DNA from: Nitrospinales bacterium
Lineage (GTDB): Bacteria > Nitrospinota > Nitrospinia > Nitrospinales > VA-1
Length of the DNA stretch: 64,000 nucleotides
Reading direction: 5' to 3'
Assembly: GCA_965223795.1 (NCBI GenBank)
Contig: CBDCXL010000002.1
Span: 2,308,030-2,372,029 of the forward strand
Shown: positions 49,662 to 52,656 of the stretch, in pieces
Layout: the number at the start of each line of letters is the position of its first letter
How positions within the stretch are numbered: position 1 is the first letter of the stretch
Position numbers and translations under genes: made by a program
Notes under the pieces: model-generated
What the model was told of the DNA's origin: nothing
The model's input: only the letters and a program-made list of their open reading frames with translations
Database searches by the model: none

Positions 49662-51404
49662 CTAGATTTTTCTTCTATAAACTCCGTAAACTTCCTGCAA
49701 TGCGCGGGTCCATTCATCGAGGGTCACCTGCTTGACGATCTTTAGCGTGGTTTCAAAAACATTGCCGCCGCTTTCTGCTACGCGCTTGAGTAAATCGATT
49801 TTTTCTTTGACTTCTTTCTGATTTCGATTCTTCTTGAATCGCTTCACATCATCCCGGCGTTTTTGCTTTAATTCCCGGGATATTTCGACCCTTGGAATAT
49901 CCGTATTGTCTTCTCTTCCTTCCATATAACGGTTGACGGCGATGATGGGCCGTTCCCCGGTGCGAACCTGGTGCTCATACAGTGCCGACGAATTTGCGAT
50001 CTCATCGCGAAAAAAACCGATGTTTTTTGCTTGCAGGGTGCCTCCGAATTCCTCGATCTGACAAAAGTAATCCAGAATTTTATTGATTACCAGAGTATAA
50101 ATCTGACTCCTTCCCGAACCGTCGCTTAAAAAAGCCATCATGTCCTTCAATCCTCCCATCTCTTCCAGCAGGATCGCCTGGGCGTCGGAAGCGATGCGCA
50201 CCGCTCCTTCTGTGGGTGTTGTGACCGGTTCGTCGTAGGAATTGCTGTGCAGTGCCTGCGGATAATTGAGCAGTGCATAAAACAACTCCAGTGCGGTTCT
50301 GGTGATGTTGTTCTGGATTTCCCTTTCGTAGAGACTCCTTCCTGAAGACTGGATGTGCGCTTTCAATTTTTGTGCGCCGGGGTCGTCCGCTCCATACACA
50401 TCCCGCATGGCTACCGACCAAACCCTTCTCACCGCACTTAATAGAGCGATGTATTCAATATCGAGCCCGGAAGTGAAAAAAAAGGGCAGGCGCTTCCCGA
50501 TGGTGTTGATTTCCATTCCTCTTTGCAGGGCCTGCTCCACATAGACAAACCCGTTGGCCAGAGTGAATGCGGCCTGCTGTATGGGGGTCGCTCCTTTCTG
50601 CTCGATATGGTAGCCGCTGACATTGATGGGGTAATACAAGGGGGCATTGGCTGCACACCATTCGAACATATCCATCGCAAGCTCAATGGACTTTTCCAGG
50701 GGAAAAAGAAGCTCGTTTTGTGCGTCGTCTTCCTTGCAAGGGTCGGTTTGAGATGTCCCGCGCACCCTTTTTAAATTCTGTCCCTTCTCATTCGCGGCCT
50801 GAAGCCGGGCCGCGGTCATCCAAAGCGAGGGACCGTTGATCGTCATCGAAATGCTGACATCGTCTTCAAAAAAACCATCATACAATTCCAGCATATCCTG
50901 GTAAGTGGTCACGGAAACCCCGCCTTCACCCACATCCAGGAAATAGTCCGGATCGTCCGCTCCTCTTCCGAGAAGCGTATTTGTGTCGAATGCGGTGCTC
51001 AGCCGTCGGGAGGACTGCCGCTGGACTATGTATTTGAAGCGCTCGTTCGTCATTTCTGGAGAACCCAGACCGGCGAATATACGGGTGGGCTCTTCGTGCT
51101 CCCTTTTTCCATCGATGATCAGGTAGGCCGTCGGGTAGATGGACAGGCCGTAAGGAAATTCGCCCGGAAACCCCCATTCTCCCTGGTAGCGCGCGATTTG
51201 CGAGGGATGGTCGATCCTGGGAACGGCGATGGAAGGGATGTGAAGGCCTGTCGGCAACGGATGGGACTGCAATCTCTTCAGTTTTTCCTTCCATTGTGAT
51301 TGCAGCTCTTGTTGATAAGCCGGATCGCGTTTTGCCTTTTCAACGGAGTCTTCCACCGATTGGCGGTACTGTTCGTTCGCGCGAACGATATCAGTGAGGG
51401 ACAT
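49662..51404 (-). CDS. B12-dependent acyl-CoA mutase, substrate-binding (TIM-barrel) subunit, IcmF-like
   Basis: 580 aa. FPGEFPY...EEPTRIFAGLGSPEMTNERFKYI resembles the IcmF catalytic domain rather than classical MCM. SQTDP and YHIEQKGATPIQQAAFTLANG are mutase-family motifs. Confidence 0.85.
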   Translation of the reverse strand: MSLTDIVRANEQYRQSVEDSVEKAKRDPAYQQELQSQWKEKLKRLQSHPLPTGLHIPSIAVPRIDHPSQIARYQGEWGFPGEFPYGLSIYPTAYLIIDGKREHEEPTRIFAGLGSPEMTNERFKYIVQRQSSRRLSTAFDTNTLLGRGADDPDYFLDVGEGGVSVTTYQDMLELYDGFFEDDVSISMTINGPSLWMTAARLQAANEKGQNLKRVRGTSQTDPCKEDDAQNELLFPLEKSIELAMDMFEWCAANAPLYYPINVSGYHIEQKGATPIQQAAFTLANGFVYVEQALQRGMEINTIGKRLPFFFTSGLDIEYIALLSAVRRVWSVAMRDVYGADDPGAQKLKAHIQSSGRSLYEREIQNNITRTALELFYALLNYPQALHSNSYDEPVTTPTEGAVRIASDAQAILLEEMGGLKDMMAFLSDGSGRSQIYTLVINKILDYFCQIEEFGGTLQAKNIGFFRDEIANSSALYEHQVRTGERPIIAVNRYMEGREDNTDIPRVEISRELKQKRRDDVKRFKKNRNQKEVKEKIDLLKRVAESGGNVFETTLKIVKQVTLDEWTRALQEVYGVYRRKI

Positions 51405-52656
51405 GTTCGGGCTCCATCAGGACCTGATACAACGCATCGACACCGGCATTTCTGTGTTCGATTGCGGTCGTGAGAAACAATCGGTCGCGGTTCACTTTTT
51501 TTCTCAGCAAACCGCTCACATGACGTGAACCCCAAAGCTCACTTTTATTCAACACAACGATAACCCCAGGCAGGTTCAACATTTCTTCCTTCTCGATTTG
51601 TAGAGCGCCGCCGATGTCCGGGGTGGCGACAAACACCGCCTGATCCACAAGGTCCACAATCCCGCTGTCCGGCTGCCCGATGCCGTAAGTCTCCACGATC
51701 ACGTCGAAACCCGCGGCTTTGAGGATCTTGAGAACGTCGGGAAGTGCACGTGCGATCCCGTTTCCGTAGCCGCGGGAAGCCATGCTTCTAACGAAGACCC
51801 TGCTTGTGTCCACCCAGTTCTTATCGGTGGCATACATGTAAGCGATTCGATCGGCCAGCAAAGCACCGCCTGTGCTTCCTGAACTGGGATCGATCGCGAC
51901 CAGAGCCAGCTTTCTTTTTTCTGTGCGCGGATCCTTGAAATACCGCAGTACCAGCTCATCGGTTAAAGTGCTTTTTCCCGATCCCCCTCGTCCAGCAATA
52001 CCGATCACCGGGTGAGGGTTTCTCGAAGGCTGTAACCTGTCAAGGCAATCCTGGAAATAACGGCACCGTTCCAGAATTTCCTTTCTTTGCAAGCCGGACG
52101 AAGACAGATCGGTTTTTTCATTGCTATCACCCTCCTTCAGCAAGGACTCCAACCGGCTTTTTTCCTCCACGAGGTTGATCCAGCCGGAAACAGCCAAAGC
52201 ATCTCCCTCCCGGACCGGATCCAGGAGATCCAGAGGATTCTCCGGAACCATGGAATAATCGTAATTTTCCTGAACGAAGGAAACGATTTCCTGGGATTCA
52301 TCGCTGCGGAAAATTTTATCGATTCCCGATACTTTTTCCAGGACGGCAATGTCCTTTGGAGTGATCGTCGCTCCTCCTCCTCCTATCAAATGCACACTGG
52401 GATAATTTCGCTGTTTTAGTTTGTCCACGACCGCCTTGAAAAAGGGCACGTGGCCGCCGTTGTAGGAACTGATTCCGGCGAAATGGATTCCTTCCTGGAT
52501 GATGCCATCGACAAATTTATCAACCGTCAAGTCATATCCACCCAGGATGACTTCCACGCCTCCTTTTTTCAGGATGTCCGCAACGATCAAAATGGGCGCG
52601 TCATGTCCATCATTGCTCTTGACACCGATGAAACCTCGGATCTTGTTCTTTGGCAT
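51391..52656 (-). CDS. Cobalamin-binding domain fused to MeaB/ArgK-like G-protein chaperone (N-terminal two thirds of an IcmF-type protein)
   Basis: The N-terminus GVKSNDGHDAPILIVADILKKGGVEVILGG is a B12-binding fold. The G-protein part carries P-loop GIAGRGGSGKSTL, then AIDPSSGSTGGALLADR, ETYGIGQ and LNKSE. Confidence 0.85.
   Translation of the reverse strand: MPKNKIRGFIGVKSNDGHDAPILIVADILKKGGVEVILGGYDLTVDKFVDGIIQEGIHFAGISSYNGGHVPFFKAVVDKLKQRNYPSVHLIGGGGATITPKDIAVLEKVSGIDKIFRSDESQEIVSFVQENYDYSMVPENPLDLLDPVREGDALAVSGWINLVEEKSRLESLLKEGDSNEKTDLSSSGLQRKEILERCRYFQDCLDRLQPSRNPHPVIGIAGRGGSGKSTLTDELVLRYFKDPRTEKRKLALVAIDPSSGSTGGALLADRIAYMYATDKNWVDTSRVFVRSMASRGYGNGIARALPDVLKILKAAGFDVIVETYGIGQPDSGIVDLVDQAVFVATPDIGGALQIEKEEMLNLPGVIVVLNKSELWGSRHVSGLLRKKVNRDRLFLTTAIEHRNAGVDALYQVLMEPEHVPH

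Follow-up and report, generated by a model that had tools for sequence, protein, structure and literature searches.

A predicted half-fused IcmF-type acyl-CoA mutase, encoded by two adjacent genes in Nitrospinota

The G-protein chaperones of B12-dependent mutases have been described in two arrangements, either as stand-alone proteins (MeaB/MMAA) or as part of a complete fusion with the mutase (IcmF) (PMC11672702, PMC10481361), and a 2024 review gives only these stand-alone and fused MeaB systems (PMC11672702). Fused IcmF, represented by the protein of C. metallidurans (CmIcmF; structure 4xc6; family model NF045497), is one polypeptide of about 1,080-1,100 aa in which a B12 domain is followed by a MeaB-like G-domain without a C-terminal arm and then by the substrate-binding barrel. 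The two-subunit acyl-CoA mutases, isobutyryl-CoA mutase (ICM; Streptomyces IcmA/IcmB) and 2-hydroxyisobutyryl-CoA mutase (HCM; HcmA/HcmB with MeaH; 4r3u), have a separate barrel subunit of about 570-585 aa, a separate cobalamin subunit that needs to dock non-covalently and a free G-protein chaperone. PCM-F, another fusion, is engineered rather than natural. Here we analyse a pair of open reading frames (ORFs) from a Nitrospinales bacterium that presents the modules of IcmF in the same order, but across two co-oriented, overlapping genes (421 + 580 aa) instead of one; it lies in a 64,000-nt stretch of contig CBDCXL010000002.1 (assembly GCA_965223795.1, positions 2,308,030 to 2,372,029), referred to below as the window. 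The pair shares with ICM and HCM the separate barrel and cobalamin subunits, and differs from both in that chaperone and small subunit make up a single chain. The two-gene layout is a conserved natural design, neither a sequencing error nor a broken gene. It represents a real and apparently uncharacterised variation on the architecture of a known enzyme; in function it is probably a butyryl/isobutyryl-CoA mutase in which the cofactor subunit has the chaperone attached.

ORF A (51391..52656, minus strand, 421 aa) encodes a cobalamin-binding Rossmann domain fused to a MeaB/MeaI-type G3E GTPase, that is, a small subunit with a built-in chaperone, and ORF B (49662..51404, minus strand, 580 aa) encodes the substrate-binding TIM-barrel large subunit of an IcmF-type acyl-CoA mutase. 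A first-pass annotation of the window had proposed this division of labour, and both ORFs were recovered at the coordinates that it gave. The motifs that it quoted (DGHDAP, GRGGSGKST, DPSS, ETYGIGQ, NKSE and EEPTRIFAGLGSPEMTNERFKYI) are all present in the translations, and the 14-nt overlap ATGTCCCTCACTGA, in which the two genes are read in different frames, was likewise borne out. The overlap (51391..51404, minus strand) runs from the ATG start codon of ORF B to the TGA stop codon of ORF A and is consistent with translational coupling; a GGAG Shine-Dalgarno (SD)-like sequence (51412..51415, minus strand) lies within the 3′ end of ORF A, with 7 nt between it and the ORF B ATG. Scans for promoters and terminators returned no more sites than shuffled sequence. 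The far end of ORF B is overlapped over its final 56 nt by a helix-turn-helix (HTH) ORF at 49415-49717.

Domain searches assigned the same modules. Pfam detected PF02310 (B12-binding; aa 12-117, E = 3e-15) and PF03308 (MeaB; aa 203-373, E = 1.4e-34) in ORF A, and PF01642 (MM_CoA_mutase; aa 76-574, E = 1.8e-104) in ORF B. For each ORF the top NCBIfam model was IcmF NF045497 and the closest solved structure was CmIcmF (4xc6). ORF A matched profile positions 11-365 with 248.8 bits and ORF B positions 512-1075 with 432.6 bits, such that positions 366-511 (about 147) found no match between them and neither ORF reached the equivalog cut-off of 1500 bits.

Two ORFs that overlap in different frames and jointly follow the IcmF domain order could also arise from an ordinary IcmF that has been frameshifted or mis-sequenced, leaving a pseudogene or an assembly error, and the first-pass annotation had placed this alternative beside a natural two-piece enzyme. 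About 45 homologues of ORF A were found (about 400-460 aa, 53-70% identity), and those named by source all come from Nitrospinota (Nitrospina gracilis, N. watsonii, Candidatus Nitromaritima and Nitrospinaceae metagenome-assembled genomes, MAGs). About 40 homologues of ORF B (576-587 aa, 61-80% identity) were found, the named ones belonging to the same Nitrospinota organisms except for one MAG labelled Spirochaetia. The identity to named Nitrospinaceae proteins, 70-80%, points to Nitrospinota as the affiliation of the locus. The gene pair recurs in N. gracilis, where the two genes are adjacent with an 11-nt overlap, and in three more Nitrospinota-clade contigs (L087, L088, L089), where they are spaced by 1, 4 and 10 nt. 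A second split clade consists of stand-alone ORF B relatives (573-615 aa, 42-47% identity; about 77 among the 120 best matches listed), with Luteolibacter and Tepidisphaeraceae among its named members; at all four of its loci that were opened, a B12-MeaB gene of 360-503 aa lies directly upstream of the barrel gene, with an ATGA overlap.

Thus, all nine independent loci examined are split, and their junctions differ (-14, -11, +1, +4 and +10 nt in Nitrospinota; -4 nt in each of the four from the second clade). Both protein ends at the break are conserved across the two split clades, with MS.L..I..ANE.Y at the N-terminus of ORF B and HRNxGVDxLYxxL, before a short tail, at the C-terminus of ORF A, and ORF B carries its own SD sequence. 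The pair, only about 32-45% identical to fused IcmF, also has about 90 fewer linker residues than the latter, is missing a segment of ~17 aa that fused IcmFs carry in the linker just upstream of the barrel, and has no counterpart of the barrel insertion of at least 20 aa found in all sampled fused IcmFs. A single frameshift would be insufficient to generate this combination of conserved ORF ends and missing segments, and the closest fused proteins are only about 32-38% identical. The homologous split loci with their differing junctions therefore exclude a frameshifted IcmF, to which we assign next to no probability, and establish the pair as a natural two-piece IcmF-type mutase.

The position of the split forms relative to fused IcmF was assessed by the barrel insertion and by phylogeny. 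The MTING and GTxQxD motifs of the barrel are 29 aa apart in ORF B and 31 aa apart in the second split clade, about the same as in alignments of HcmA and methylmalonyl-CoA mutase (MCM), and 51-108 aa apart in every fused IcmF measured. Fused IcmF sequences were obtained by a scan of genome contigs, among whose matches listed there were almost only fused IcmFs and no Nitrospinota. A neighbour-joining tree was built from a 254-column segment of the barrel with 200 bootstraps and rooted on two MCMs; HcmA served as an additional outgroup, and all three of these proteins came from PDB alignments. The ORF B barrel groups with IcmF and not with MCM, the IcmF-type family receiving 100% bootstrap support and HcmA falling outside it. 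Within the family the 31 fused proteins fall together in a single clade (92%); its sister (70%) unites the two split clades, each supported at 100%. Because the barrel tree and the insertion character agree, the split forms are not recent break-ups of canonical IcmF. They constitute instead a sister lineage with an unexpanded barrel, possibly retaining an ancestral half-fused architecture, and the half-fused form is plausibly the architecture from which, or beside which, IcmF arose. This placement is tempered by the neighbour-joining method, by limited samples and by the support of only 70% for uniting the split clades; together with trees that do not contain stand-alone IcmA/IcmB, these leave the direction, fusion or fission, unsettled.

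A tree of ORF A was used in unrooted form only, since the chosen 'MeaB' representatives fell inside the ingroup and at least one of them resembled an IcmF fragment. Here, the split forms group at 86%, with three fused proteins weakly drawn in. The two of these that were testable, P0291 and P0303, are members of the fused clade by both the barrel tree and the insertion character, neither of which upholds the weak fused/split grouping. These two proteins are short fused IcmFs (1047 and 1064 aa) that diverge basally within the fused clade of the barrel tree, and they could help to establish in what order the fusions took place.

The cobalamin domain of ORF A has the elements expected for base-off/His-on binding (DxHxxG...SxL...GG). 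Its His-loop reads DGHDAP (aa 16-21; 52594..52611, minus strand), with D16, G17, H18 and D19 invariant in the family, and the SSYxGGH and GGGG motifs are retained in the family alignment. With the Asp/His loop, SSY and GGGG all kept, the upstream ORF appears to possess a functional B12 domain, the absence of which, combined with a barrel inside MCM, the first-pass annotation had regarded as evidence against an IcmF-type assignment. The same annotation had set DGHDAP against DGHDRG, the MCM form. The motif is indeed present, but it is not odd for its family: CmIcmF reads DGHDAS at this position in the alignment to 4xc6, and in the DxHxxG motif D16-x-H18 is invariant while the final Gly is Pro in ORF A, Ala in some relatives and Ser in CmIcmF. 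On these grounds, the idea that the His-loop is defective was rejected.

The G-domain of ORF A contains the complete MeaB/MMAA-type G3E GTPase motif set. The P-loop GRGGSGKST (aa 222-230; 51967..51993, minus strand) has G222, G224, G225, G227 and K228 invariant in the alignment, switch I (DPSS...GGALLADR) and switch II (ETYGIGQ) are intact, switch III (ALQIEK) is found as GALQIE-K (51589..51606, minus strand), and the base-specificity motif G4 is NKSE (aa 370-373; 51538..51549, minus strand). Q353 and K356 of switch III align with CmIcmF Q341 and K344 (4xc6), Q353 being invariant and K356 nearly invariant in the ORF A family. Mutation of Q341/K344 in IcmF reduces or abolishes GTPase activity (PMC10481361), and the roles of the G-protein motifs in IcmF and MeaB have been described (PMC10481361, PMC9974510). 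NKSE was considered as an unusual G4 motif and rejected as such, NKxE being frequent in fused IcmFs (e.g. INKFE of Bacillaceae). Many fused IcmFs (loci L005, L009, L011-L014), Bacillaceae proteins among them, have NKxE in place of the textbook NKxD. The C-terminal dimerisation arm of stand-alone MeaB is missing from ORF A: PF03308 is matched only over positions 21-182 of 273, and the protein terminates ~45 aa past G4, like the IcmF G-domain.

An AlphaFold2 model of ORF A (pLDDT 85.9, pTM 0.89), taken as a single body, matches the first ~440 residues of CmIcmF with TMq 0.77-0.78, and the mutual placement of its two domains is thus predicted to be IcmF-like. A G-protein combined with a cobalamin domain in the absence of a barrel has a precedent in the engineered complex of MeaB with the isolated Cbl-binding domain of MCM (8dpb), and ORF A is a natural covalent counterpart of that laboratory construct. 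The two differ in that MeaB is a stand-alone protein that dimerises and has a C-terminal dimerisation arm, which ORF A does not have, and in that ORF A belongs to the IcmF rather than the MCM lineage.

The residues that set substrate specificity in this family were read from alignments of ORF B to solved structures. Phe110 in PTRIFAG (51075..51077, minus strand) corresponds to CmIcmF Phe598, MCM Tyr89 and HcmA Ile90; Gln229 in DAQNELLF (50718..50720, minus strand) corresponds to CmIcmF Gln742, MCM Arg207 and a Gln in HcmA; and Ala138 in STAFD corresponds to Ala in IcmF and MCM and to Asp117 in HcmA. ICM has the same Phe/Gln signature. The ICM/IcmF class (EC 5.4.99.13) is therefore indicated by Phe and Gln at the MCM Tyr89/Arg207 positions, and the Ile90 and Asp117 of HCM are absent, with Phe and Ala in their place. 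All 151 barrels carry Phe/Gln/Ala (38/38 of the Nitrospinota clade, 77/77 of the second clade and 36/36 fused), and at the level of residues this combination is the isobutyryl-CoA mutase signature. Fused IcmF accordingly has in common with the split pair the DGHDAx His-loop, the Phe/Gln pair and the switch III Q/K. The first-pass annotation had left the substrate open; with the specificity pair reading Phe/Gln it is now less so. We consider it likely that the pair is a natural two-subunit IcmF-type adenosylcobalamin (AdoCbl)-dependent acyl-CoA mutase; judged by Phe/Gln/Ala, its reaction is most probably butyryl-CoA <-> isobutyryl-CoA.

The source databases annotate homologues as 'methylmalonyl-CoA mutase', and the operon described below is linked to propionyl-CoA metabolism, such that the pair could be imagined as an MCM with its MeaB, converting methylmalonyl-CoA derived from propionate to succinyl-CoA in parallel to the methylcitrate genes. 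However, Tyr89 and Arg207 (P. shermanii numbering), which bind the substrate carboxylate in MCM, are replaced by Phe and Gln, MCM sequences form an outgroup with a separation supported at 100%, and MCM models score 306 bits against a cut-off of 876. A methylmalonyl-CoA mutase is thus highly improbable.

The mutase pair forms the end of an apparent operon. On the minus strand the order is prpD-like, prpB-like, prpC-like, ORF A and ORF B, with gaps of at most 63 nt or overlaps. The first gene encodes a prpD-like 2-methylcitrate dehydratase (54753..56279; PF03972, PF19305) and is followed by a prpB-like methylisocitrate lyase (53894..54751; PF13714) and a prpC-like 2-methylcitrate/citrate synthase (52720..53919; PF00285), the latter 63 nt upstream of ORF A; all three are on the minus strand. 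The same five-gene order is present in N. gracilis, L088 and L089, and hence 4/5 Nitrospinota loci examined end prpD-prpB-prpC with the mutase pair. Beside the operon in the window, a divergent cluster on the plus strand (56448..63775) encodes a 650-aa acyl-CoA dehydrogenase, a thiolase and a 1287-aa fused protein of the indolepyruvate/2-oxoacid:ferredoxin oxidoreductase (IOR) family. A thiolase and an IOR-family 2-oxoacid:ferredoxin oxidoreductase of ~1,265-1,294 aa are close by in 4/4 prp-linked loci, and an acyl-CoA dehydrogenase in two of them (the window and L089).

Several observations weigh against the butyryl/isobutyryl-CoA assignment and the pathway drawn from it. A long stem branch (0.33 in the barrel tree) leads to the Nitrospinota clade, and 23 positions with conservation of at least 90% in each of the other two groups carry substitutions specific to this clade; they include DILKE to DPCKE and YHIAEAGA to YHIEQKGA, the latter beside the catalytic Tyr-His, and since such changes adjoin catalytic residues the substrate could differ. 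The prp-like proteins score below the curated cut-offs (prpC-like, 289 bits for TIGR01800 against 421; prpB-like, 296 bits for TIGR02317 against 354; prpD-like, 228 bits against 950 for the PrpD NCBIfam equivalog), making the pathway inferred from context uncertain, and these divergent proteins may act on substrates that need not equal the canonical methylcitrate intermediates. Finally, the divergent Nitrospinota-clade locus L087 has no prp linkage.

These points bear on the main alternative, in which the pair is a genuine two-subunit IcmF-type mutase acting on a substrate other than butyryl/isobutyryl-CoA, such as isovaleryl/pivalyl-CoA, valeryl/2-methylbutyryl-CoA or some acyl-CoA connected with the prp-like enzymes that the operon encodes. 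Besides the long stem branch and the divergence of the operon partners themselves, it would account for the summed IcmF model score of 681 bits against the 1500-bit cut-off, and a side activity of IcmF on pivalyl/isovaleryl-CoA has been reported (PMC9974510). Seven of the 23 clade-specific replacements are in segments lining the active site (A733T, L736C, Q740D, S775N, I776V, E783Q and A784K in CmIcmF numbering), which raised the possibility that they cluster there as a sign of new specificity; corrected for conservation, however, the enrichment is not significant (7/36 vs 16/125, Fisher p = 0.23), and such clustering was rejected. The three specificity-setting positions are moreover ICM-type in every member. 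We therefore regard another substrate as unlikely, though by no means negligible, and favour the butyryl-CoA <-> isobutyryl-CoA reaction. A narrower proposal, that the Nitrospinota version is a mutase of new specificity and not an isobutyryl-CoA mutase, and that it and the divergent prpD/prpB/prpC-like enzymes function as a unit, is more doubtful still; an example would be conversion of isobutyryl-CoA to butyryl-CoA that feeds an alkylcitrate-type cycle and yields succinate and a 2-oxoacid.

For the half-fused mutase itself, a mechanism can be proposed in which the cofactor-handling steps follow those seen in IcmF and MeaB structures. Synthesis of the two subunits would be coupled through the stop/start overlap and the ribosome-binding site inside ORF A, after which the B12 domain of ORF A would dock non-covalently on the barrel of ORF B, like the small subunit in ICM and HCM, with the G-domain tethered in cis to the Cbl domain as in IcmF. 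GTP-dependent pairing of the G-domains of two ORF A subunits would place switch III of each at the nucleotide of its partner (PMC10481361, PMC9974510). Switch III would then serve both as a catalytic element and as a wedge that opens the mutase, gating the loading of AdoCbl and the removal of damaged cofactor. Because ORF A has no covalent tie to the barrel, opening may consist of nothing more than its undocking, ORF A behaving as a cofactor-plus-chaperone cartridge.

The gene context suggests a role in the catabolism of short or branched-chain acyl-CoAs (from amino acids or organic acids) that gives acetyl- and propionyl-CoA. Here, the mutase would join the branched and straight C4 acyl-CoA pools: isobutyryl-CoA, arising for example from valine via the oxidoreductase, would be isomerised to butyryl-CoA, which would pass to acetyl-CoA through the dehydrogenase and thiolase, and the prp enzymes would clear propionyl-CoA from isoleucine or odd-chain substrates. 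Published Nitrospina genome analyses cite prpBCD and the methylcitrate route, but never the mutase (PMC8026999, PMC5029188).

Further features of these neighbourhoods were observed. The large IOR-family oxidoreductase combines PF01558 with DUF6537. The thiolase and IOR genes sit on varying sides and strands (window 56448-63775; L001, the N. gracilis contig, 11015-16084; L088 12051-17141), which suggests rearrangement around a conserved functional neighbourhood. In the Nitrospinaceae contig L088, genes of the homogentisate pathway (1874-5028; HgmA, an FAA hydrolase and a glyoxalase-fold protein) lie directly upstream of prpD, a hint that the mutase/prp region is an amino-acid catabolism neighbourhood. 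In N. gracilis (L001 735-4364), genes for proteins with eCIS_core and DUF6519 domains come before the operon, a neighbourhood resembling a contractile injection system and unlike the left flank of the window. In the window, the segment 48056-49720 contains a tRNA-Lys(CTT) gene (48056-48131, plus strand), followed by decayed insertion-sequence (IS) pieces on the minus strand. Among the latter, the HTH ORF that overlaps ORF B (49415-49717) and a second at 49136-49393, both on the minus strand, resemble the N-terminus of an IS481-type transposase, and a fragment at ~48700-49000 (minus strand), assigned by eye, resembles the C-terminal part of an IS3-type integrase with stop codons inside. The GC content falls from about 0.57-0.59 (window 1-48000) to about 0.50 (48000-64000), and the step coincides exactly with the tRNA-Lys/IS boundary. 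This gives the whole mutase-prp-thiolase-IOR block the look of an island of distinct composition, though it is conserved among Nitrospinota.

The half-fused form has no description in the searchable literature, which left out key IcmF papers, such that an earlier mention is possible, and no model for it is present in curated libraries; its members carry source labels such as 'cobalamin-dependent protein' and 'methylmalonyl-CoA mutase family protein'. The pair adds a third architecture for B12-mutase chaperones, half-fused, with the chaperone attached to the cofactor subunit only, that occurs naturally in many bacteria, Nitrospinota among them. Whether the fused IcmF system brings any benefit, and which, has been raised as an open question (PMC9974510) on which the pair bears, and it offers a natural comparison system, an analogue of the engineered MeaB:Cbl-domain complex used in structural work. 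Thousands of genes now labelled 'methylmalonyl-CoA mutase' or 'cobalamin-dependent protein' could be renamed. Nitrospinae, which are marine nitrite oxidisers, are B12 auxotrophs (PMC8026999). In these organisms the pair would represent an enzyme that requires B12, is probably catabolic and is built into the prp operon, and if the Nitrospinota version were indeed a mutase of new specificity, it would constitute an unrecognised B12-dependent route for organic carbon in 'obligate' nitrite oxidisers that are auxotrophic for B12.

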